Shown piece by piece: positions 783 to 13,073 of a DNA stretch of 13,627 bases; within the stretch, counting starts at the first letter, position 1, and each line of letters begins with the position of its first letter. Location of the stretch: the IMG/VR virus record IMGVR_UViG_2579778952_000003. One strand, given 5' to 3'. Under the pieces are notes generated by a model, which saw only the letters and a list, made by a program, of their open reading frames with translations, had not been told where the DNA came from and searched no databases. This stretch comes from a virus. Lineage: Duplodnaviria; Heunggongvirae; Uroviricota; Caudoviricetes. The position numbers and the translations under genes were made by a program.

Positions 783-1076
783 TTAACGTCGTAACCGCTC
801 CGGCTTCTTCCAGTGGTAAGTAATTTTTTCTTTCTCCTGGTACATCTCCACGCGGCGACGATATGACAACAACTCCAGAACTCTGGTGCGTATATTGCGT
901 ATATCCACGCCGTTAAGCTCGATACCGTCACGGCGCATCACCTCAGCCACCACACGCGCGTAATTTTCGGCTATCACGCTGTCCGGCTGCGTGGCCTCCT
1001 GTTTGCCTGCTTCCTGGCTGATTCCGGTAACGCGACGGATTATTTTTAGTAGTTCGGTTTCGCTCATTCTCGTCAT
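783..1076 (-). CDS. Hypothetical protein (97 aa), last gene of the packaging operon; possibly a head completion or adaptor protein
   Basis: ORF overlaps the TerL stop by 4 nt, suggesting translational coupling. No recognisable motif; the functional guess is from position only. Confidence 0.5.
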   Translation of the reverse strand: MTRMSETELLKIIRRVTGISQEAGKQEATQPDSVIAENYARVVAEVMRRDGIELNGVDIRNIRTRVLELLSYRRRVEMYQEKEKITYHWKKPERLRR

Positions 1077-2734
1077 CCCCCATCAACCGCCGAAAGCCGC
1101 TCTTTGTGGCTGTCGCTTATATCAAATGCAAATTCCTCATGTTCTGCCTGGAATGTGCCAAACGCCATCAGAGCCGCAACGCTCGGGTCTATCTTGTTGG
1201 ATGATTTTTTCTTGTTCGGCTTGATATTGGCGTTCGCGTCACTCTGCATCACAACATTACTCATTGACCAGGCCAGCACCGGATCGCCACGATGCACAAT
1301 CACCTTCCGGTTAACAAAAACTTCGAACGATTTCGCCGCCGGACTGAAACGAAGGTATGTTTGCGGGAACGGCTCCACCTCAAATCCTGCCCCCTGTAGC
1401 TGCGTCCTCAGGTGCGTGGCGTTCCATGTATCGAAGCCCACCAGCCTGATATTGAAATTCTCTGCATCCGCCATGATGTCATCACGGATACGGTCATAAT
1501 CAATGCAGTCACCCGGTGTTGTGCGTATCCAGCCCGCCTTTACCCACTGGCGATAGATGGCGCGGTTTTTATTGGCGGGGTTCTGTAGCTGAAATTCCGG
1601 CAGATAGTGACGGGAAACCAGCATAATCTTTTTACCGACCGGAAAGGCATAGCACACGCTGGAAATATCGCTGGTTGATGATAAGTCCAGCCCCGCGTAG
1701 CACTCCTGACCGTATAAATCTGCCTCCGCGAACGTTCCGGCGCACTCCGTCCATGCACCGTTACCCATCCACGGCGTAGCCCCCTGACACCAGATATTGA
1801 ATCGCTTGGTGAGCATTTCCACCCACTGCGACGGAATACCCCGCGCTTTCTGGATGGTTGAGGCCAGTTTTTCACGATCGACGGAAACATCGATATTGGG
1901 ATTCGCCTTTATCCACATCGCCGGATCGTCAACCTCGCTTTCATCATCCAGCTCGTAAATCAGCACGAACATGGATTCGTTCACCTCTTCACCATCCAGT
2001 ATCTGGCAGCAATAGTCATAGTGTTGTTTACAGGCTGAAACAACGTTGCTCCCCGATGTGGTGATGGCAAATAACAGCCCCTCCGGACGCGCCCCCATTC
2101 CCAGTTCAAGCGCGGAATAAACCCCGTTGTCAGGGTGCAGGTGATATTCATCCACAATGGCAAGACTCGGGTTTGTACCTTCAATGGTTGCCGCTTTTGC
2201 TGCCAGTGGCTTTAACAGGCTGTTGGTTTTCGGGTGTATCACCTTGTGTGCCTGAATATTTACCCGCTTTCGTAACGGTCGGGATAAAAGGCACATCTGA
2301 CGCGCATCATCAAACACGATCCGCGCCTGATCACGACTCACGGCGGCGGTGTAAATATCCTGCTGCCCGTTTTCCATAACCAGAAACCAGTTAGCCAGGA
2401 TAGCGGCGACCGTGGATTTGGCATTTTTTCGCGGCACTTCAATGAATGCGCTGGTGTATTTGCGCCGTCCGGTGGCCTTAACCTTAAAGCCCAGGATGCA
2501 CGCAAAGGCGAACTGCTGCCACGGCTCCAGCTCAATGGGGCTACCGCGCATTGCGCCTTTTACGTGCGGACACACCCTGGAAAAGGCAATAAACCGCTCC
2601 ACGACCTCCGGATCGAACGTGTAAAGGGGGTTTTCAAGGTCAGAAAAATACCGTTTAACGGCCTGTTTCAGTCGTTTACAGGCCGTAATTTTGCCGTTTT
2701 TTACGCCTTCTGCGTACTCATGCCAGGCGGTCAA
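1073..2734 (-). CDS. terL: Terminase large subunit (553 aa)
   Basis: N-terminal ATPase region with a PRKNAKST P-loop-like motif and overall large-terminase sequence character. Start appears to be TTG at 2734 with a GAGGA Shine-Dalgarno 5 nt upstream; the start overlaps the TerS 3' end by 17 nt. Confidence 0.9.
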   Translation of the reverse strand: MTAWHEYAEGVKNGKITACKRLKQAVKRYFSDLENPLYTFDPEVVERFIAFSRVCPHVKGAMRGSPIELEPWQQFAFACILGFKVKATGRRKYTSAFIEVPRKNAKSTVAAILANWFLVMENGQQDIYTAAVSRDQARIVFDDARQMCLLSRPLRKRVNIQAHKVIHPKTNSLLKPLAAKAATIEGTNPSLAIVDEYHLHPDNGVYSALELGMGARPEGLLFAITTSGSNVVSACKQHYDYCCQILDGEEVNESMFVLIYELDDESEVDDPAMWIKANPNIDVSVDREKLASTIQKARGIPSQWVEMLTKRFNIWCQGATPWMGNGAWTECAGTFAEADLYGQECYAGLDLSSTSDISSVCYAFPVGKKIMLVSRHYLPEFQLQNPANKNRAIYRQWVKAGWIRTTPGDCIDYDRIRDDIMADAENFNIRLVGFDTWNATHLRTQLQGAGFEVEPFPQTYLRFSPAAKSFEVFVNRKVIVHRGDPVLAWSMSNVVMQSDANANIKPNKKKSSNKIDPSVAALMAFGTFQAEHEEFAFDISDSHKERLSAVDGG

Positions 2735-3074
2735 GCTCGTCCTCTTCCTCTGTTTCCGGTGGATTTCTGCGGCGACTTACCGGGTCAAAACCCAGCAAAG
2801 AAGCCATTTTGATCATTATTCTTTCAGCGTCAGCCTTTGCGCTCAGGGCGGGGTTTCTGCTCTCGCTGCCCTGACTGTTAACAATGCTGAACCCGCGCGT
2901 GGCAAGGTCTTCGACGGCTTTGCGGTATATGGAGTAGTTAACACAATACAGCTCCAGATTGCTCCAGTCGGCGGGGGTAAGGTCTTCCCGTCCGGAAAGC
3001 TGGCGCGATTTTTCCTTCCACTGCCTGACCGCGATTTCATCCAGGTAAGCGGGGGCTTTTGGTGGTCTTGCCAT
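2718..3074 (-). CDS. terS: Terminase small subunit, P27-family-like (118 aa from ATG at 3074)
   Basis: Begins MARPPKAPAYL, typical of P27-family small terminases, with an acidic C-terminal tail. The track ORF extends to 3215, but the conserved N-terminus starts at the internal Met. Confidence 0.8.
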   Translation of the reverse strand: MARPPKAPAYLDEIAVRQWKEKSRQLSGREDLTPADWSNLELYCVNYSIYRKAVEDLATRGFSIVNSQGSESRNPALSAKADAERIMIKMASLLGFDPVSRRRNPPETEEEDELDRLA

Positions 3075-3193: not shown

Positions 3194-3370
3194 TCACCAG
3201 CGATTGCGAAAACATTCCATGACCTCGCGGTCACGGTCGGTTAATTGCTTCGCTGTGGTGCGTTCTGTGCGCCCTGTCCTGTTGGCTTTGTGCCCTGTCT
3301 CCTGTGTCTTCCATAAGTCACGCTGCCTTATCAGTCCACGTATCAGCCTGGTTTGCTCCTGTTCAGTCAT
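3194..3370 (-). CDS. Small, highly basic hypothetical protein (about 59 aa) between HNH and TerS
   Basis: Reading frame starts at ATGs (3379, 3373 or 3370) overlapping the HNH stop (3363-3365). Arg/Lys-rich with no recognisable motif; could be spurious. Confidence 0.3.
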   Translation of the reverse strand: MTEQEQTRLIRGLIRQRDLWKTQETGHKANRTGRTERTTAKQLTDRDREVMECFRNRW

Positions 3371-3803
3371 CATCGCCATACATCCAGTCGTTACGGTGTG
3401 CAGCCCGTTCTTCCTGCTCGCGATACATGCCCGCCTTACGGTTCGCTTTCGTGGCTGGATCTTCCCGTGTCGTCTTACGGTTGTGGCACGTCTGGCACAA
3501 TGCCTGGTGGTTCCACTCAGGCCAGAAGAGAACATCACCGCCGCCATTGATGGGGATGATGTGATCCACCACAAGAGCTGGCGTATAAATCCCCTTAGCC
3601 AGACAACGCACGCATAACGGGTTTTTGCTCAGGTACAGGGCGCGGTATTTGTCCCACTGTCGGGAATACCCGCGCGCGCGGCGGTGTCCCCGTCTGGCAT
3701 CCTCTGCACGCCATACAGCCCGTCTGTGCTCTTCACACTTGCCGGACTTCACGCGCTTATTACAGCCCGGCTCAGTGCATCGCCTTAATGGTTGCCACGG
3801 CAT
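3363..3803 (-). CDS. HNH endonuclease (146 aa), terminase-associated type
   Basis: Cys-rich N-terminus (CTEPGCNKRV...GKCEEH) and HNH core (VVDHIIP...NHQALCQTCHNRKT). Start ATG overlaps the connector stop (TGATG). Confidence 0.85.
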   Translation of the reverse strand: MPWQPLRRCTEPGCNKRVKSGKCEEHRRAVWRAEDARRGHRRARGYSRQWDKYRALYLSKNPLCVRCLAKGIYTPALVVDHIIPINGGGDVLFWPEWNHQALCQTCHNRKTTREDPATKANRKAGMYREQEERAAHRNDWMYGDDD

Positions 3804-4105
3804 CAGTACACCCCCACATCACGATAAACCGACCAGAGCGCAGAAATAGCCATAGGCAGTTCAGACTGCTCCACTGGTGAAACTGCTTCCCTGTTCTCGT
3901 ACAGGAAAGCGATGTACATCAGGCAACCAACACGCATTGCCGGGGTAAATTCCAGCCCGTCTTCAAAACGTTTCCCGATATGCTTCTGGCAGGCTTCCAG
4001 CGCCGCATCGGTATACATTTTCAGAAGTTCGCCTTCACCGGATAAATCATCATCAAGTCGAAGATGTGCCCTGACTTCATCAGGTGTAATTCTGGCTTCA
4101 CTCAT
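3803..4105 (-). CDS. gp6-like head-tail connector / DNA-packaging protein (100 aa from ATG at 4105)
   Basis: MSEARITPDEVRAHLRLDDD N-terminus and C-terminal FLYENRE motif match the gp6-like connector family. GGGAG Shine-Dalgarno upstream; the track ORF start at 4168 would overlap portal. Confidence 0.8.
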   Translation of the reverse strand: MSEARITPDEVRAHLRLDDDLSGEGELLKMYTDAALEACQKHIGKRFEDGLEFTPAMRVGCLMYIAFLYENREAVSPVEQSELPMAISALWSVYRDVGVY

Positions 4106-5312
4106 CTTTTCTCCCTTTAATTTCCACAGTCTGTTTCCATGCCTGGCTGAACTCATCACCACCTTCACGCGGCGGCATACCCTCGCGTTCGCGAGCTTCG
4201 TTCGGATTCATGATCCCGCTCTTAATCCCTTTCTCATACGTGGCATAACGTTCGGTGGGTGTGGCGCGCAGTAAATCGGCTGAATCAAACTCAACCAGAT
4301 AACGGGTACCAGGTACGGGAGAAGTCACCAGCAAAGCGGCCTTGATTTGCTGTTCGAAGTTCGCCAGCCACGGGCGCATTGTCATGGTCAGAAATGCGCG
4401 GCTCGCCTCACTGAAATTGCTGTAGGTGCTGTTGCTGTATTCCTGAAGAAAAATCGGCGACACGTTGAACATCCTGGCGATGTCTTCAATGGAGAAGCGA
4501 CGGGAGGCCAGCCATTCCGCATCCTGGTTACTCATCCCCAGCTGCCTGTAATCCATGCCCCCTTCAAGGATTGGCGTTTTTCCGGCATTTTTCGCCCCCT
4601 TGTAGCGTTCCAGTGCGTCTAATGCCTGTTTACCTTTCACGCCGTCCAGCCATTCACCTGACGTGATAATCCCTGCCGCCATCATGCCATCTTTCATAAT
4701 GCTGGCTCCGTGACGCTGTTGAGCAAGGCCAAGCCCCAGCGCCTCACGGCAAATCGTGACGGGGGAACGCCCCAGAAAGCCATCATCCGAGGCATAGCGG
4801 AGATGCAGAACTTCTTCCTGTAAATACGTGCGCACCGTTCCTGTACAGGGTTCGGTGATGGTATAGCGGTATTTGTGTGTGCCTGTGCGTTCCGGTACAA
4901 CACACCCCGGCGCATAAGGATGAAGTGATTTTGGCTGCCCGTCCCGCCCCCACTCAATAACCGCATAGGCGTTACCGTTCAGCAGGCAGTGACGCATCAT
5001 TGTGCGTTTAAACTGGTAAGGTGTCAGGCACGAATTAGGCTGCTCATTCAGCAGAATATCTACCGGGTGACTGTCCAGCCATTCCCGCGCCTCTCTGCCC
5101 TTATCATTGCGTACCAGATACAGGTAACACGGCATCGTGGCCACCGCCTCAGCGATGACAGAAACCGCGTTCATCACAGCAGGCAATGATTCAGCCGTCC
5201 CGGCAGAAACATATTCTCCGGATCCGGTATTTGGTACACCAGACAACGCCAGAAAATCATCAATGGACAGGTTACGCAGATCGCTTTTTTTACGACTAAA
5301 AGGCCACCACAT
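4098..5312 (-). CDS. Portal protein, HK97 family (about 404 aa from ATG at 5312)
   Basis: Conserved portal blocks LNGNAYA, EVLHLRY, REALGLGLA, DAEWLASRRFSIEDIARMFNVSP and a C-terminal PPREGGDE. Start MWWPFSRKK sits 1 nt after the protease stop. Confidence 0.9.
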   Translation of the reverse strand: MWWPFSRKKSDLRNLSIDDFLALSGVPNTGSGEYVSAGTAESLPAVMNAVSVIAEAVATMPCYLYLVRNDKGREAREWLDSHPVDILLNEQPNSCLTPYQFKRTMMRHCLLNGNAYAVIEWGRDGQPKSLHPYAPGCVVPERTGTHKYRYTITEPCTGTVRTYLQEEVLHLRYASDDGFLGRSPVTICREALGLGLAQQRHGASIMKDGMMAAGIITSGEWLDGVKGKQALDALERYKGAKNAGKTPILEGGMDYRQLGMSNQDAEWLASRRFSIEDIARMFNVSPIFLQEYSNSTYSNFSEASRAFLTMTMRPWLANFEQQIKAALLVTSPVPGTRYLVEFDSADLLRATPTERYATYEKGIKSGIMNPNEAREREGMPPREGGDEFSQAWKQTVEIKGRKDE

Positions 5313-5313
5313 A

Positions 5314-5874
5314 TCACAACCCCGCCAGCTCAGCCCAGCGATGACGATTATTTCCTGCCGGGCGTAATTCAGGGTACTGTGCAAACAACGAACGGTGGGC
5401 AATCTCCACGCCGGATTCGGGATAAGCAGGCATCGATGTTATCGTGATTTCACGGAGTTCTGCGGCGGTTACAGTACGCAGATACGGTTTTTGCGCGATA
5501 TTCCACTCCTCGCATAATGCGCGAAAGCCAAAGCTCATCCCTGTAATGTCGCCACGTTCCACCAGCGTAAGCACATCTTTTCCAAGCTGGGTATTTGGCG
5601 GTGTCAGTTCAAAACGTAGCCCGGTGTTATCCTCAGTCAGTACCAGTGAGCCGGATTTGGTACGCCCCAGCAGTCGGGTATAGTCATGCTCATACAGACA
5701 GCGCACATCATTACCCGCCGCCAGATAGTCAGCAAAAGCCCCCGGCGTGAACTGTTCGCGAAACTCGTCCCAGATAATTTCTGAAAGGCTGTTCCAGCGA
5801 ACGGCATAACCCACCAGTTTTTTATCGCTGGCGGTCAGTTCAGATGTACGGATTTCAAAATCGGTGTTTTTCAT
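5314..5874 (-). CDS. Prohead maturation protease, HK97 / S78 family (186 aa from ATG at 5874)
   Basis: Motifs LVGYAVRWN, GAFADYL, CLYEHD, LTEDNTGLRFE, GDITGMSFGF and TSMPAYPESGVEI. GGAG Shine-Dalgarno 7 nt upstream of the ATG; the upstream part of the track ORF overlaps the capsid gene and is rejected. Confidence 0.85.
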   Translation of the reverse strand: MKNTDFEIRTSELTASDKKLVGYAVRWNSLSEIIWDEFREQFTPGAFADYLAAGNDVRCLYEHDYTRLLGRTKSGSLVLTEDNTGLRFELTPPNTQLGKDVLTLVERGDITGMSFGFRALCEEWNIAQKPYLRTVTAAELREITITSMPAYPESGVEIAHRSLFAQYPELRPAGNNRHRWAELAGL

Positions 5875-5894
5875 CGGTGTACTCCATAAAGCTG

Positions 5895-5915
5895 AAAAAG
5901 GAGGCCGAAGCCCCC
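5895..5915 (-). terminator. Candidate intra-operon attenuator between capsid and protease genes
   Basis: Minus-strand RNA GGGGGC-UUCG-GCCUCC (6-bp stem including one G-U pair, UUCG tetraloop) followed by UUUUU. The stem is stable only on the minus-strand transcript (A-C mismatch on plus). Confidence 0.4.
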
Positions 5916-5923
5916 TTTGCTCA

Positions 5924-7069
5924 TTACTTGCCAGCCTGAATTTCCAGAATCTTGATGGCGTTCGAATCCACCACACCACCGCCCAGATATTTCTGGGTAT
6001 AGATGTTAATGAATCCAGGCTCGCTGAAATCCGGACGGGTACGCGTACCGGTTTTATGGTCAACGATGAAATAACCGCGCTTAAAGTCACCGACTGCAAT
6101 CACACCGTCCGGCATAAATTCCAGATATTCAACCGGAAGCCCCAGCAGAGAATCAGGATCACCAGCCTGTAAACGATCGCGCCAGATGTAATCACCAGTG
6201 GCATTTTTCAGTTTTTGTGCGGAGGCGGCTGTATTTGAGTTCATCACCCATACAGCTTTTTTGCGGTACTTATTGCGCAGCGTAAATTTCAGGTCAATCA
6301 GCATATCGGCGCTGAGACTGCCAGTCACTTTTTTCGTCTGGAGCGTACCGAAAGGACGGGTTTTGTCATTATCCGTAGTGCGCGGGAAAGTCAGGAAACC
6401 TTTGGCTTTTTTCTCGCCATCACCGGAAACCAGATCCGTTTCTTCGGTATCAACGAAAGTGTCGCCAATTTCAGAAGATAACCAGCCCATAATATCGACT
6501 TCGGAAAAATCGATAATTTCCTGAGTGGTTTTCGGGTAAGCGTAGATCGGATACAGGCGGATACTGACTTCATTCAGTTTTGGGGTTGCCGTCTGGTTAC
6601 GTGCCGCACCTTCTTCGCCGTGTCCCACGACCGCACCCCCGGCAGAAACCAGTTGCTTAAATTCATTACTGTGAATGGTTTTAACAGTACAGATTTTACG
6701 CATCACCGACTCATCAGAAAGCTGACGCATAATTTCTCTGTTCAGTTCCGGGATAACCGTATAACCACCATCAGCCGGAACACTGCCGGACAGGTTGCGG
6801 GTTTCCCCGGTCAGAATGTAAGAGCGTAGCTCATTTTTGGTGATTTTATCTTCGACGGGAACACCAGGCTGGTTACGTTCTTCATCAGCCACAGACTCGA
6901 GGCGGGAAATTTCTGTGTCGAGGGAATCGGCTTTTGCACGCAGTTCATCAAACTGTTTGCCTTCGTCATCGGTTAGACTGCGGTTTTCACTGTCGGCTTT
7001 TTCCAGCAGGGATCGCATCTGGTTTTTCAGGGCGGTTTTTTGCTGGCGGAGTTCGATTAATTTCTTCAT
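5924..7069 (-). CDS. Major capsid protein, HK97 fold, with N-terminal coiled-coil (delta/scaffold-like) domain (381 aa)
   Basis: N-terminal 100 aa is charged and heptad-like (LRQQKTALKNQMRSLLEKA...); C-terminal region (GYFIVDHKTGTRTRPDF, ILEIQ) is typical of HK97-type capsid proteins. Confidence 0.9.
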   Translation of the reverse strand: MKKLIELRQQKTALKNQMRSLLEKADSENRSLTDDEGKQFDELRAKADSLDTEISRLESVADEERNQPGVPVEDKITKNELRSYILTGETRNLSGSVPADGGYTVIPELNREIMRQLSDESVMRKICTVKTIHSNEFKQLVSAGGAVVGHGEEGAARNQTATPKLNEVSIRLYPIYAYPKTTQEIIDFSEVDIMGWLSSEIGDTFVDTEETDLVSGDGEKKAKGFLTFPRTTDNDKTRPFGTLQTKKVTGSLSADMLIDLKFTLRNKYRKKAVWVMNSNTAASAQKLKNATGDYIWRDRLQAGDPDSLLGLPVEYLEFMPDGVIAVGDFKRGYFIVDHKTGTRTRPDFSEPGFINIYTQKYLGGGVVDSNAIKILEIQAGK

Positions 7070-7137
7070 GAAGGTTTTCTCGCATTGGTTAAGATTCAGG
7101 ACGTGAAACCAACACGGGGGGAGCGCCGCCCGACACT

Positions 7138-7172
7138 CTCGGCATCTCGCAGATCAACCCGGCATCGCGCAG
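7138..7172. repeat. Imperfect 14-15 bp direct repeat (ctcGGCATCtCGCAG / cccGGCATCgCGCAG) in the GC-rich capsid leader
   Basis: Read directly; 20 bp apart, inside the predicted 5' UTR of the capsid operon. Confidence 0.6.
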
Positions 7173-7224
7173 GGGGTCAGGCGGCATTGTGGCGGCTCAC
7201 GTCTGAGTGCCACACGCCAACATA

Positions 7225-7252
7225 TACATAAAAATCAGTATGTAAACATCAA
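7225..7252 (-). promoter_or_regulatory. Candidate sigma70-like promoter for the head/packaging operon
   Basis: Minus strand TTGATG (7252-7247), 16-nt spacer, TATGTA (7230-7225), just downstream of the 7313-7333 terminator and about 150 nt upstream of the capsid ATG. GAACAACC repeats at 7263-7282 lie just upstream. Confidence 0.3.
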
Positions 7253-7312
7253 CCAGAATCACCGAACAACCTGGAACAACCACGAACAAATAATTTACAA
7301 AACCTGAAAAAA

Positions 7313-7333
7313 GGCCCGGAAAAAATCCGGGCC
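7313..7333 (-). terminator. Intrinsic terminator separating the early/replication operon from the head operon
   Basis: Perfect 8-bp stem GGCCCGGA / TCCGGGCC with a 5-nt loop, flanked by A6 on the left and a T-rich run on the right, so a U6 run follows on the minus strand. Dyad is bidirectional. Confidence 0.75.
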
Positions 7334-7342
7334 TTTATCGCT

Positions 7343-7591
7343 TTATTGTTTCACTGGCTCCCGCATTCTGCGTCTTATTTTCCACAAATATTCGATCATC
7401 GCTTCCACCTGCTCACGGTTGGTTGCGAAAATTTCCCCGGTCAGTGAGCTACGCAGAAAATCATGATGATCCACAAAAAATAACGCATCGGAAGAAAGCA
7501 ACCGACGATATTTTTTTGCTGTCGTGGTTTCCAGATCATCAAAACCATGAAGCTTTTTATGTTGCTGAACTTCTTCAAATGTCACTGGCAT
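7343..7591 (-). CDS. Hypothetical protein (82 aa), last gene of the early operon
   Basis: AGGGGGA Shine-Dalgarno just upstream of the ATG at 7591; overlaps the ProQ/FinO-like gene end by 10 nt; followed by the terminator. Confidence 0.55.
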   Translation of the reverse strand: MPVTFEEVQQHKKLHGFDDLETTTAKKYRRLLSSDALFFVDHHDFLRSSLTGEIFATNREQVEAMIEYLWKIRRRMREPVKQ

Positions 7592-8112
7592 GTATCCCCC
7601 TTTGCTGCCCGGCGCTGGCGCTTGTGCTTCTCATTCAGCACCATCAGCCGTGTTTCTGCCTCCTGCTGTTCCTGTGGTGTCACTTCCCCACATGGCTGGC
7701 CTTTCAGGTCGTAACGTGCGCCACCAGCTATCAGGGCGCGGTAATAGCGCGGAGACTGCGCATAGGATGCCAGCGTCGCACGTAATACCCCCGGCCCGAA
7801 TGCCAGCCCCCTGACGGCGATATCCTGCATCAGGTCGTCGAATATCCCCACCTTAAGCGGCTTCGGTGCTTTATGGCTGAATAAGTCAGGCCACATCTCA
7901 GTGAGGCGGTTAACGCGTCGGCGGTTTTTGCGCTGCCTTTTGGTCATATGCTGCCACGGTGTCGCCCCTGTGGGCTTCTGCTGTGCGTTCTGATTGCCGG
8001 GTATCACTTTATGCGCCGATGTGGTTTTATCCTGCTCTTGCGCCGCCTGCGTCGTTTTCTGCGGCGTGCCGTAAATGCCTTTCGGCTTCCGGTTAATGGT
8101 CAGCGTTGTCAT
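7582..8112 (-). CDS. ProQ/FinO-domain RNA-binding protein (176 aa)
   Basis: PLKVGIFDDLMQDI and ASYAQSPRYYRALIAGGARYDLKGQPCGEVTPQEQQEAETRL parallel the E. coli ProQ N-terminal FinO-like domain (PLKIGIFQDL ... [35 protein letters not shown]) as recalled from memory. Basic, Gln-rich N-terminal extension; AGGGGAAGG Shine-Dalgarno. Confidence 0.8.
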   Translation of the reverse strand: MTTLTINRKPKGIYGTPQKTTQAAQEQDKTTSAHKVIPGNQNAQQKPTGATPWQHMTKRQRKNRRRVNRLTEMWPDLFSHKAPKPLKVGIFDDLMQDIAVRGLAFGPGVLRATLASYAQSPRYYRALIAGGARYDLKGQPCGEVTPQEQQEAETRLMVLNEKHKRQRRAAKGDTCQ

Positions 8113-8148: not shown

Positions 8149-8574
8149 TTAAAACGGTATGTTATCCCCGTACGGGTCATCGTGCTGGCTTGTCTGTTGT
8201 TTTGCCCTGTTCAGTGCGTCAGTGGCCTGGCCCTGTTGACCTTTTTTGCCGCCCGGTCGCGCCGTTCGCGCACTGATTACGCTGTCTGCAATAACCTGCC
8301 AGCCCTGCCGCGTTTCCCCGTTCTGGCCTGTCCACTGGCTCACCTGCATGTTACCCGCCACGCTCACCAGTTCGCCTTTGTGGTGTTTTGCCAGTGCGTC
8401 GGCCTGTCTGCCAAACGCCAGGACAGATAACCACATCGTCGCCGTTCCGTCATCTGCCTGGCTGCACGGCAGGGGAACCGCCATACTCGCCATCGCCATT
8501 TGTGTCCCTTTGCTGGTGGTCTTTAACTGCGGGTCAGCCACCAGCCGCCCGTAAGCCGCTATCTGTGCTGTCAT
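8149..8574 (-). CDS. ssb: Single-stranded DNA-binding protein homologue (141 aa)
   Basis: OB-fold-like core (IAAYGRLVADPQLK ... WLSVLAFGRQADALAKHHKGELVSVAGNMQVSQWTGQNGETRQGW), Gly/Gln-rich linker and an acidic C-terminal tip ending DNIPF (E. coli SSB ends DDDIPF). Confidence 0.8.
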   Translation of the reverse strand: MTAQIAAYGRLVADPQLKTTSKGTQMAMASMAVPLPCSQADDGTATMWLSVLAFGRQADALAKHHKGELVSVAGNMQVSQWTGQNGETRQGWQVIADSVISARTARPGGKKGQQGQATDALNRAKQQTSQHDDPYGDNIPF

Positions 8575-9103: not shown

Positions 9104-10918
9104 TTAATTTTTGCTGTCGTCATTTGTGACCGATGCACATGATGGCATCCAGTCTTCTGAATCCTCTGTCAGTGTCACATTTGAACGCAAACCGTGCTTC
9201 GTTTTCCGTTTTATATACTCCCTGCCATATTCCGCCATTGCCCCCGGCATATCTTTACCGAAGCGCGTCAGTGTTACAGGTTTACCGAATCCGTGTGCCC
9301 TCATATATGCCAGATAGGCGTGATAAAGATACCTGCGCGGACTGAACGGAATAATTTCGGCATTACCCACTAACAGACCATCACACATTACCGACGACAT
9401 GAGATAGCCACAGAAGTCCACCAGCGAATCGCCCTCGCGTTTTATCACCAGAGCTTCTTCTGATTTCTGCTGCTCATACAGCAGGCGTTTAGCTTCGTCC
9501 TGGTCAGAAAAACGAGTAAGCAGATGGCGAATCACAACCGCCAGCTCTCCTTCTATTTTTTCTGCCAGCATGGGGTCGCGCTCGTTCTCCGGTACAACCT
9601 CCGAAAAATTGAATATCACCCGACGACGTGAGATCCCCCCGCTGCGGTCACTGAATGACATGGCGTTATTGTTCACCGCCAGCACGACCGCCTGAATGCG
9701 TGTTGAGTAGGGGGCTTTATGCTTCGGGTCGATTGCCACCTTGTCACCGCCTGTAATAGCCTTAATTCCTGCGCCATCACCAGCGTAGCGGGTCATATCC
9801 GGCATGATAATCAGCGAAAAGCCAACCACTAACGCGCGTTCCCTTGCATCTTCCAGCGCCTTCATGCTTGCCGATACTGTGTTGGCCTTACCCGCCAGCA
9901 TGGTGCAAATCTCCGCCATCACGCTTTTACCACTTCCCCCTGGACCTGTTACCTCAATGAATAACTGCCAGTCGTACCGGTTCGCCAGCACCATGAATAA
10001 TGCAGCCAGCACGCGATCCGTCTTGCGGTCATTCTCTGCCACCGAGCAGCGTAACCACTTCCAGAAATTCGGCGCATGTGTTGCCAGCGTTTCCCCCTCT
10101 GCTGGTGGGCTGAAAGGTAATTCACTGGCAATTAACAACCAGTCGTTTTTGTTATGCTCCCGAAAATTACCTGTTCTGGTATCAAATACCCCGTTACTGA
10201 ATCCAATCAGGTTACGGGCTGTATTCCCCATTACAGGCAAACTTAACTTCATGGTATCGACCGCCGATTTAATGGCGTTCTGCGAATAGCTGATCTCCGC
10301 ATCAATGAAAATCTGCGCCATAGCACGCTGTAACTCTTTATCCTGAATCGGCTCCCATACAACGCCGTTGTAATGGTGAACAGTGTCAGAGTCGGCATGA
10401 ATCGCCAGTTCACCGCCATAATGTGCCAGGAGAACTTCGCCGCGCTGGCTTGCTCCCATCTGGTTAAGCGCCAGTGGTGCGGCGCTGTCTTCTGTTTTTT
10501 TCTTAACAGGAAGCTGAATCACCAGACCATCAGAAAGATTCTGGCGCTCACGGGCCAGATATTCGCGCCAGTTCTGCACCTCCTGGCCGTGCATACCCTC
10601 AGGATAAAAATTTGCATCCTGTACGCCTGCCGCCGCCAGCTTCTGACCAATCGCCTTTATCATTACTGGCGCAAGATATCCGGCCCTGAATATGCGCACG
10701 GATTTTCTGCCTTCCGGCACAATTTGCAGCTTATCCAGTTCGGATAACTGCTGCTCCCCAAGCCACACAGGAGGCTCATTATCTCCGGCCATACGCGCGT
10801 CATGTTCCTGCCATTGTTTTGCGTGTGACCAGGCATCACTACCCGCAAAAATAATGACTTCTGTTTCTTTGTGTTTTATGCCGCGTGACTGCTGTTTTAC
10901 GTTCGGTGCCAGTTTCAT
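9104..10918 (-). CDS. P4 alpha-type primase-helicase (604 aa)
   Basis: Primase-like N-terminal half, Walker A GPGGSGKS in the middle, long C-terminal domain; adjacent to the iterons it would bind. AGGGG Shine-Dalgarno; ATG overlaps the upstream gene's stop (ATGA). Confidence 0.9.
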   Translation of the reverse strand: MKLAPNVKQQSRGIKHKETEVIIFAGSDAWSHAKQWQEHDARMAGDNEPPVWLGEQQLSELDKLQIVPEGRKSVRIFRAGYLAPVMIKAIGQKLAAAGVQDANFYPEGMHGQEVQNWREYLARERQNLSDGLVIQLPVKKKTEDSAAPLALNQMGASQRGEVLLAHYGGELAIHADSDTVHHYNGVVWEPIQDKELQRAMAQIFIDAEISYSQNAIKSAVDTMKLSLPVMGNTARNLIGFSNGVFDTRTGNFREHNKNDWLLIASELPFSPPAEGETLATHAPNFWKWLRCSVAENDRKTDRVLAALFMVLANRYDWQLFIEVTGPGGSGKSVMAEICTMLAGKANTVSASMKALEDARERALVVGFSLIIMPDMTRYAGDGAGIKAITGGDKVAIDPKHKAPYSTRIQAVVLAVNNNAMSFSDRSGGISRRRVIFNFSEVVPENERDPMLAEKIEGELAVVIRHLLTRFSDQDEAKRLLYEQQKSEEALVIKREGDSLVDFCGYLMSSVMCDGLLVGNAEIIPFSPRRYLYHAYLAYMRAHGFGKPVTLTRFGKDMPGAMAEYGREYIKRKTKHGLRSNVTLTEDSEDWMPSCASVTNDDSKN

Positions 10919-11214
10919 TTTTTACCCCTGAATCCGTTAATCATGGTTTTCAGCTTCTGGATGTTTGCCCGTGCCCTGGCGTTGCTGGTGGACACGTTAT
11001 GCGGCGCGGTCTGTACCAGAGAAAAATCACGCCGGAACTGATAAACAGGCATCACGCAATCATATTCGTAACCTTCACGGCGGTAGGTTACGCGCCGTTC
11101 TTCCACGCCCTTAATCATTACCGTGCCGCCGTACTGGTCGCGGTAAATATCGCCGCGCGTAAATTTAGGGTGAGTGTTGCCACTGGCAGTTAAGCCAGAA
11201 TATTTAAGTTTCAT
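10915..11214 (-). CDS. Hypothetical protein (99 aa)
   Basis: ORF translationally coupled to the primase; no recognisable motif. Confidence 0.55.
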   Translation of the reverse strand: MKLKYSGLTASGNTHPKFTRGDIYRDQYGGTVMIKGVEERRVTYRREGYEYDCVMPVYQFRRDFSLVQTAPHNVSTSNARARANIQKLKTMINGFRGKK

Positions 11215-12921: not shown

Positions 12922-12950
12922 GGCGACCCTTTTGCGGTCGCCTTTGTTTT
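12922..12950 (+). terminator. Plus-strand intrinsic terminator downstream of the Arc-like gene
   Basis: GGCGACC-cttttgc-GGTCGCC (7-bp perfect stem) followed by TTTGTTTT. Confidence 0.6.
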
Positions 12951-13045: not shown

Positions 13046-13073
13046 GGCGGTTCCTTATCGGGGCCGCTTTTTT
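13046..13073 (+). terminator. Possible second plus-strand terminator
   Basis: Short GC stem (GCGG ... CCGC) followed by a T7 run. Stem is weak. Confidence 0.3.

Follow-up and report, generated by a model that had tools for sequence, protein, structure and literature searches.

A terminator-like hairpin at a conserved position behind the capsid gene of a capsid-forming phage-inducible chromosomal island of Escherichia coli

Phage-inducible chromosomal islands of the capsid-forming kind (cf-PICIs) make their own small capsids, take only the tails from their helper phages and cross species. Their prototype is EcCIEDL933, the name now given to the O157:H7 island CP-933C / O-island 51 (Alqurainy et al. 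2022 preprint, 10.1101/2022.09.08.507074; a further source on cf-PICIs is the He et al. 2025 preprint, 10.1101/2025.02.11.637232), and experimental proof of helper-phage induction, small T=4 capsids and helper-tail hijacking exists for EcCIEDL933 and a few others only. The stretch of DNA analysed here, 13,627 nucleotides of the IMG/VR virus record IMGVR_UViG_2579778952_000003 (the whole stretch is referred to as the window), is a cf-PICI of E. coli and a relative of EcCIEDL933. The capsid gene stands first in its packaging operon and is followed by a hairpin with a U-tract, which we interpret, with modest confidence and from sequence comparison, as a conserved, moderately strong and leaky intrinsic terminator that would raise the capsid message above that of the downstream genes. 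The words 'promoter' and 'terminator' are absent from the cf-PICI publications searched, and to our knowledge the timing and balancing of capsid, portal and terminase synthesis in cf-PICIs have not been described so far.

The assignment of the window to the cf-PICIs is based on the site and layout that it shares with the O157:H7 island. Over the head region (4098-7300) it matches the chromosome of E. coli FDAARGOS_1249 at 100% identity; there the island measures ~14.7 kb, occupies the phoQ-roxA interval and carries a tyrosine integrase just past the window end. Of 5426 complete E. coli genomes, 534 have related copies, which are chromosomal in every case. On the minus strand, the capsid gene is preceded by int, an AlpA-like helix-turn-helix (HTH) regulator, an Icd-like gene, a DUF4222 gene, a D5-type primase, SSB and a ProQ/FinO-family gene, and no tail or lysis genes are annotated in the identical E. 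coli locus. EcCIEDL933 likewise sits between phoQ and roxA and runs from int through an AlpA-like regulator, DUF4222, primase and SSB to a capsid-first packaging module with a hairpin in the capsid-protease spacer and no tail or lysis genes, whereas the DNA identity over the head genes is ~73-75% and the sequences of hairpin and leader differ between the two. Size (cf-PICIs span about 10-18 kb), integrase, attachment site, AlpA-type regulation, replication module and the lack of tail and lysis genes are all as in cf-PICIs, and the order of the packaging genes by Pfam agrees with the published cf-PICI list. In place of the adaptor and connector pair of that list the window has a single PF05135 gene between portal and HNH, a subtype difference that leaves its membership of the family unaffected.

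The packaging genes, called by Pfam and by the RefSeq annotation of the 100%-identical E. coli locus, and the hairpin between the first two of them are the following.

5924-7069, minus strand: major capsid protein (HK97 fold), encoded at the head of the packaging operon (PF05065, E = 8e-61; RefSeq 'phage major capsid protein')
5895-5915, minus strand: terminator-like hairpin GGGGGC-UUCG-GCCUCC (5915-5900) followed by U5 (5899-5895), with AAA before the stem
5314-5874, minus strand: prohead serine protease (S78) (PF04586, E = 7.5e-45; RefSeq), with the Shine-Dalgarno (SD) sequence GGAG at 5885-5882
4098-5312, minus strand: portal protein (PF04860, E = 1.6e-91), starting 1 nt past the protease stop
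3803-4105, minus strand: gp6-like head-tail connector, the sole head-tail joining gene (PF05135; RefSeq coordinates)
3363-3803, minus strand: HNH endonuclease (PF01844, E = 9e-10)
2718-3074, minus strand: small terminase TerS, P27 family (PF05119, E = 4e-23; RefSeq coordinates)
1073-2734, minus strand: large terminase TerL (PF03354 and PF20441)

By Pfam the gene set of an HK97-like head and packaging module is complete, in an order that departs from the canonical HK97-like one. A preliminary description of the window had read this order as capsid, protease, portal, connector, HNH, TerS, TerL and had contrasted it with that of HK97-like phages; Pfam and RefSeq bear out the former, and the latter agrees with the records of HK97 (TerS, TerL, portal, protease, capsid, adaptor, head closure) and phiP27 (HNH, cos, TerS, TerL, portal, protease, capsid, adaptor). 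The term 'reversed' that it applied is apt for portal-protease-capsid, which is inverted in order and comes first, but not for HNH-TerS-TerL, which keeps its internal order and is placed after the head genes. In cf-PICI loci that have both head-tail genes, head closure precedes adaptor, swapped relative to HK97. The capsid-first order is already known as the published conserved organisation of cf-PICIs, whose packaging modules have been described as differing from those of phages in genetic organisation (Alqurainy et al., 10.1101/2022.09.08.507074). Related elements share this order: it recurs in genomes of Citrobacter, Salmonella, Morganella, Proteus, Photorhabdus, Arsenophonus and Xenorhabdus, in one Pasteurella record labelled 'phage', and in the 16.5-kb genome of an induced particle.

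The hairpin and its U5 can be read directly from the sequence between the capsid and protease genes. A 5′ arm GGGGGC (5915-5910) and a 3′ arm GCCUCC (5905-5900) enclose the loop UUCG (5909-5906) and form a stem of 6 bp, five G-C pairs and one G-U pair, with an energy of -9.9 kcal/mol; the hairpin starts 8 nt past the capsid UAA, and the U-tract ends 20 nt before the protease AUG at 5874. The capsid stop UAA (5926-5924) is itself followed immediately by an in-frame UGA (window 5921-5926, minus strand). All hairpins on both strands were ranked by a d'Aubenton-Carafa-type score, d, that combines hairpin energy per nucleotide with a weighted U-tail and serves as a ranking device only, its coefficients following d'Aubenton Carafa 1990 and being used with modern energy parameters. 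With d = 28.7 and a tail score of 4.72, the post-capsid hairpin ranks second of only two sites with d>0 on the minus (sense) strand of the 13.6 kb, and no other sense-strand site with d>0 lies between the start of the capsid gene and the end of TerL. Dinucleotide shuffles yield, per 13.6 kb, 0.6 sites with d>0 but 0.025 that reach d>=28.7, and a chance occurrence is therefore rejected; the 61-nt fold has z = -2.0. The element combines the hallmarks of intrinsic terminators, namely a short loop on a GC-rich stem of 5 bp or more, an adjacent U-tract, and a sense-oriented, non-coding location past a stop codon. A general promoter and terminator scan of the window did not list the hairpin, probably due to extension of the stem into the flanking A/U tracts.

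Any termination at this site must be partial. The 20 nt from the end of the U-tract to the protease AUG hold only the protease ribosome-binding site (RBS), and about 25 nt, SD included, are left past the hairpin; an internal promoter ahead of the protease gene is rejected because it would not fit in there. The genes further downstream overlap or abut. In EcCIEDL933, mutation of each gene of the packaging module abolished transfer, with the exception of one hypothetical gene for which transfer was severely reduced (10.1101/2022.09.08.507074). Because there is no room for a promoter downstream and the EcCIEDL933 counterparts of these genes are needed for transfer, the hairpin has to be leaky. 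Its strength relative to the terminator upstream of the capsid gene (described below) is lower on every count, with -9.9 versus -16.9 kcal/mol, d = 28.7 versus 54.4, and 6 bp and U5 versus 8 bp and U6. The genes from capsid to TerL appear to form one transcription unit with this strong terminator upstream. Part of the polymerases would stop at the hairpin and give rise to a short, capsid-only mRNA, the 3′ end of which the hairpin would protect, while the remaining polymerases would continue into protease, portal and terminase. An excess of capsid message over downstream message would fit the composition of the particle, which the preliminary description had put at hundreds of capsid subunits against 12 portal subunits; this holds for the T=4 shell, in which published cf-PICI work gives ~240 copies of the capsid protein versus 12 of the portal protein. 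The capsid-first order would in this way let the hairpin set the capsid:portal ratio. We infer both termination at the hairpin and its efficiency.

The conservation of the hairpin was assessed in 95 loci in which a homologue of the capsid gene (57-100% identity) is followed by a protease gene, and which together provide 51 distinct capsid-protease spacers. A GC-rich hairpin is present in each of the 45 distinct spacers of 30-70 nt; d exceeds 0 in 36 and 20 in 22 of these, and at least five U lie within 8 nt past the stem in 33. A second, independent sample, 120 IMG/VR contigs anchored by a motif of the leader described below, contributed 40 more distinct spacers with the same hairpin pattern. 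Relatives that keep the gene order and lack the hairpin were looked for specifically, and none was seen among the 45 spacers of normal length, while five of the 95 loci have no hairpin. A scan of genome contigs with the single capsid protein gave only seven loci, mostly from distant Firmicutes; the five distant ones carry no post-capsid hairpin and were not used further. In some relatives (L094, L118, L156, L175 and L186) an insertion of 575-583 nt with an extra open reading frame (ORF) separates the hairpin from the protease gene, and the hairpin remains with the capsid gene.

The stem-loop itself changes between lineages. One type is GGGGC-NNNN-GCCCC with many loops including UUCG, the EcCIEDL933 type is GGGGCUU-AAA-AGCCCC, the Proteus/Morganella type has a 9-11-bp stem GCGUUCCUG...CAGGAGCGC, and Pasteurella has GGGCUAAUUUAGCCC (GGGCUAA-U-UUAGCCC); closer to the window, a 94%-identical E. 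coli variant has an A-U pair in place of the G-U pair (GGAGGC/GCCUCC). RNAalifold of 31 short-type spacers found no compensatory pairs, the GGGG/CCCC core being near-invariant and the variable loops being mis-registered by MAFFT, and classical covariation of the hairpin is missing because this core barely varies. The support for the hairpin is instead the conservation of its position together with replacement of the whole stem-loop by lineage, and whole-hairpin replacement is the usual mode of evolution of intrinsic terminators. We consider it highly improbable that the hairpin is a mere relic without a present role in stoichiometry, one that arrived with the HK97-type capsid gene at the rearrangement of the module and is tolerated for its weakness: HK97 has the same feature past gp5 and five relatives manage without it, but it persists in Escherichia, Citrobacter, Salmonella, Proteus, Morganella, Xenorhabdus, Photorhabdus and Pasteurella, and the replacement of stem and loop sequences while position, GC stem and U-run are kept is the pattern to be expected of selection and not of drift.

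The feature in HK97 is a direct precedent. The HK97 record (NC_002167) annotates a 'putative terminator' at 5192-5213, 7 nt past the stop of the gp5 capsid gene, with the sequence GGGCGGG-GAAA-CCCGCCC-UUUU, and marks others past portal and around the major tail gene. As in the window, a GC stem-loop and a U-run lie a few nt past the capsid stop and just before the next RBS, within a late operon that must be read through. Post-capsid GC hairpins with weak U-tails occur in SfI and an ST64B-like phage, and strong ones with no U-tail in phiP27 and a Pseudomonas phage; all five phages have the normal gene order. Since HK97 has a post-capsid terminator too, the hairpin is not specific to the capsid-first order, to which the preliminary description had considered it suited; it goes with the HK97-type capsid gene. 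Capsid gene and hairpin are an old unit of HK97-type modules, and the hairpin of the cf-PICIs probably descends from an HK97-like ancestor, given that the HK97 hairpin is found in the same place. Within portal-protease-capsid of HK97, the capsid gene comes last, so that the site can lower only the connector and tail genes. Only the capsid-first order could let a hairpin in this place affect the capsid:portal ratio.

Outside this group, the terminator T-phi of phage T7, which lies past gene 10 (major capsid), is incompletely efficient, and allows for much capsid mRNA and a lower level of read-through. It differs from the window's hairpin in acting on T7 RNA polymerase, in belonging to an unrelated phage family and in that the capsid gene is not first in the operon. 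A literature search for experimentally characterised post-capsid terminators yielded nothing directly usable. In bacterial operons, the intercistronic hairpins of pap, puf and the malEFG REP act as stabilisers past the gene whose product is most needed and generate segmental differences in mRNA; they act through decay, not termination, and usually lack a U-tract.

A leaky terminator has one main rival, with regulated antitermination and a vestige being less likely. The hairpin could mainly be an element of mRNA stability or processing, which blocks 3′-to-5′ exonucleases after cleavage further downstream, with the full polycistronic RNA being made. The outcome would be the same, as the capsid segment outlives the rest and more capsid message results; the mechanism would be different. 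We regard this as a possibility to be taken seriously, if a distinctly less probable one. A stem-loop is present in 45/45 spacers, yet d<0 in 9/45 and four or fewer U lie within 8 nt in 12/45, and the hairpins of phiP27 and the Pseudomonas phage are strong without any U-tract. A Q-type factor antiterminates late transcription in HK97, and HK97 has kept its hairpin even though such Q-antiterminated late operons should read through terminators; no Q-type antiterminator gene is annotated in the island (identical locus). Moreover, the island carries a gene of the ProQ/FinO family, and FinO-domain proteins bind terminator-type hairpins at the 3′ ends of RNAs. What speaks against a pure stability element is the proper U-tract, for which it would have no need and which is found in the window (A3 before the stem, U5 after it) and in 33/45 relatives.

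A leaky terminator remains our preferred reading, and several observations weigh against it. The five loci without the hairpin (L015, L088, L097, L090 and L096) have retained the gene order, their spacers being 4-19 nt long; L015 is from Arsenophonus, and L088 and L097 have a leader of the L015 type. The poor U-tracts of the hairpins in 9/45 spacers (d<0) suggest that the stem-loop matters more than termination. In HK97 and the SfI/ST64B-like phages, the capsid gene comes after portal and protease, and the hairpin therefore cannot serve the capsid:portal ratio there. RNA-seq data of enterohaemorrhagic E. coli (EHEC), examined for a step-down between capsid and protease, show 0-4 reads per kilobase per million mapped reads (RPKM) for capsid, protease and portal in an island that was uninduced and had no helper phage, and are uninformative for such a step. 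Of the claim that partial termination yields more capsid than protease and portal transcript, the conserved hairpin and its necessary leakiness stand, and the HK97 precedent and the five exceptions count against it.

The following elements lie between the capsid gene and the gene upstream of it.

7343-7591, minus strand: 82-codon ORF
7307-7333, minus strand: strong intrinsic terminator, GGCCCGGA-UUUUU-UCCGGGCC followed by U6 (d = 54.4, the top minus-strand site; dG -16.9 kcal/mol)
7219-7302, minus strand: putative promoter region (scanner match and conserved box)
7067-7215, minus strand: conserved structured 5′ leader RNA of ~145 nt that ends at the capsid AUG (covariance model)

The terminator (7333-7307), which scores on the plus strand as well (d = 30.4), closes the 82-codon ORF and insulates the capsid operon. 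It is followed by a conserved box, TTTTGTAAATTATTTGT, at 7302-7286, the core of which, TTGTAAAT, is invariant across 10 diverse relatives, and by a sigma-70-like consensus match consisting of TTTACA (7246-7241), a spacing of 16 nt and TATGTT (7224-7219); judged by these sequence motifs, transcription probably starts at a promoter near 7220-7250. In several relatives a terminator-like hairpin lies downstream of the TTTTGTAAATTATTTGT box and not upstream of it. RNA-seq of EDL933 (genes Z1846-Z1849, locus L002) shows 0-4 RPKM for capsid, protease and portal in all 11 conditions (PMC4048457 Table S4), and 69-154 RPKM in several conditions for the gene listed just before the capsid gene (same table). 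An expressed gene followed by a silent capsid gene is consistent with an effective terminator before an inducible capsid operon. The capsid gene is hence plausibly promoter-proximal, as had been proposed; the upstream terminator and the silence of the capsid gene after an expressed one speak for it, and the promoter itself is a consensus match.

Between putative promoter and capsid AUG, the leader RNA folds into the hairpin P1, whose loop is GACG, the long stem P2, and a 3′ hairpin that adjoins the start codon. A covariance model built from nine sequences matches 42 of 98 sources (the window and the loci), once in each and always ending at the capsid ATG, and has no match in HK97, SfI, phiP27, the ST64B-like phage or the Pseudomonas phage; the leader was not found in Xenorhabdus/Photorhabdus-type islands either. 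In the alignment, which was fitted to the model so that the pairing and covariation figures lean towards structure, 96.6% of cells are paired versus 33-50% with the partners slid, and the covariation score is 0.203 versus 0.076 in shuffles, 0/500 of which reach 0.203. Compensatory changes affect 9/11 pairs of the P2 stem, with G-U pairs tolerated on the sense strand; RNAalifold on the mixed leader set missed P2 owing to alignment problems, and P2 was recovered with one subtype and the covariance model. P1 (GUGGC-A-CUCA-GACG-UGAG-CC-GCCAC) and the 3′ hairpin are invariant within the leader type of the window. The leader of the EcCIEDL933 type has another sequence and the same architecture, including the long P2; its P1 shows three compensatory pairs around the same GACG loop, and its 3′ hairpin (GUCCUGG/CCAGGAC) covers the AGGA Shine-Dalgarno sequence. 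The exact 22-nt P1 core is found in at least 120 IMG/VR contigs, and in 118 of 120 the start of a capsid homologue lies 119-145 nt downstream; the remaining two end at the contig edge.

An invariant segment of 8-9 nt, UCACGUCU (GCGUCCUGG in the EcCIEDL933 type), can pair alternatively with P1 or within the 3′ hairpin, a dual pairing that suggests the leader could act as a switch. Rfam 15 gave no gathering-level match in the window, for leader or post-capsid hairpin, and the only E-values obtained (0.17-0.36) reflect chance resemblance to the terminator parts of sRNAs that are unrelated. The most likely role of the leader seems to be the translational gating of capsid synthesis, with antitermination as a weaker alternative, and we regard the leader RNA as the most novel item in the window and the one most worth following up.

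The leader also bears on an unlikely third explanation of the post-capsid hairpin, according to which it terminates efficiently until induction, when it is overridden via the leader or a factor of helper or island, so that read-through is regulated. It is favoured by the covarying leader of ~145 nt between putative promoter and capsid AUG, and many relatives have a second terminator-like hairpin between the conserved box and the leader. Antitermination in phage HK022 uses cis-acting put RNAs. According to published cf-PICI work, HK022 is a helper of some cf-PICIs, which adds to the case. Against it, islands of the Xenorhabdus/Photorhabdus type lack the leader and keep the post-capsid hairpin, while L090 has the leader and no post-capsid hairpin. 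In addition, the position of the leader 3′ hairpin next to the start codon, and over the SD in the EcCIEDL933 type, points to translational control, and the leader resembles no Rfam family.

Taken more widely, the cf-PICIs of Enterobacterales may, and here we are tentative, carry a previously undescribed capsid-operon circuit made up of three parts, the upstream terminator, the box and promoter, and the leader of ~145 nt. In such a circuit the leader would gate translation of the capsid gene (or the processivity of the polymerase), with its 3′ hairpin occluding the ribosome-binding region, and the conserved leaky post-capsid terminator would then set the ratio of capsid to portal and terminase. 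If so, the capsid-first order would let one promoter, one leader and one attenuator serve a 15-kb satellite. A conserved post-capsid attenuator would account for the 240:12 stoichiometry in a simple way and would show what is gained by the rearranged gene order. Hairpin and leader also serve as sequence markers that flag where the cf-PICI packaging operon begins and where its first junction lies. As the gene order has been published and HK97 offers a direct precedent for the hairpin, the finding is otherwise mostly ordinary.

The genes upstream of the packaging operon include the following.

7582-8112, minus strand: ProQ/FinO-family protein (PF04352, E = 1e-23)
8149-8574: SSB (Pfam)
9104-10918: D5-type primase/helicase (Pfam)
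10915-11214, minus strand: DUF4222 protein of 99 aa

The primase is D5-like in the window and of the DUF927 type in EcCIEDL933, and the ProQ/FinO gene takes the place of a PerC-like gene in EcCIEDL933. The ProQ/FinO gene (7582-8112) lies two genes upstream of the capsid gene, and, given the RNA targets of FinO-domain proteins, a link to the capsid hairpin or to the leader is conceivable. A head-closure (Phage_HCP) gene is present in EcCIEDL933-type loci and absent from the window; this gene (PF05521) is likewise missing in L012 (Morganellaceae), L016 (Xenorhabdus) and L024 (E. coli). In published work, the adaptor/connector pair is treated as the determinant of tail specificity, and the subtype without head closure may therefore differ in how it docks to tails. 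The DUF4222 protein of the window has 80% identity to the protein at the equivalent position of the O157:H7 island, which, judged by position and length alone, seems to correspond to RgdR/ECs1581, reported to activate the type III secretion of the LEE (PMC3378721). Near the end of the island that holds the regulator, two terminator-grade hairpins lie on the plus strand, at 12922-12942 (d = 24) and 13047-13067 (d = 44), and oppose the island genes; a small plus-strand gene of the YlcI/YnfO family is annotated close to them in the identical genome.

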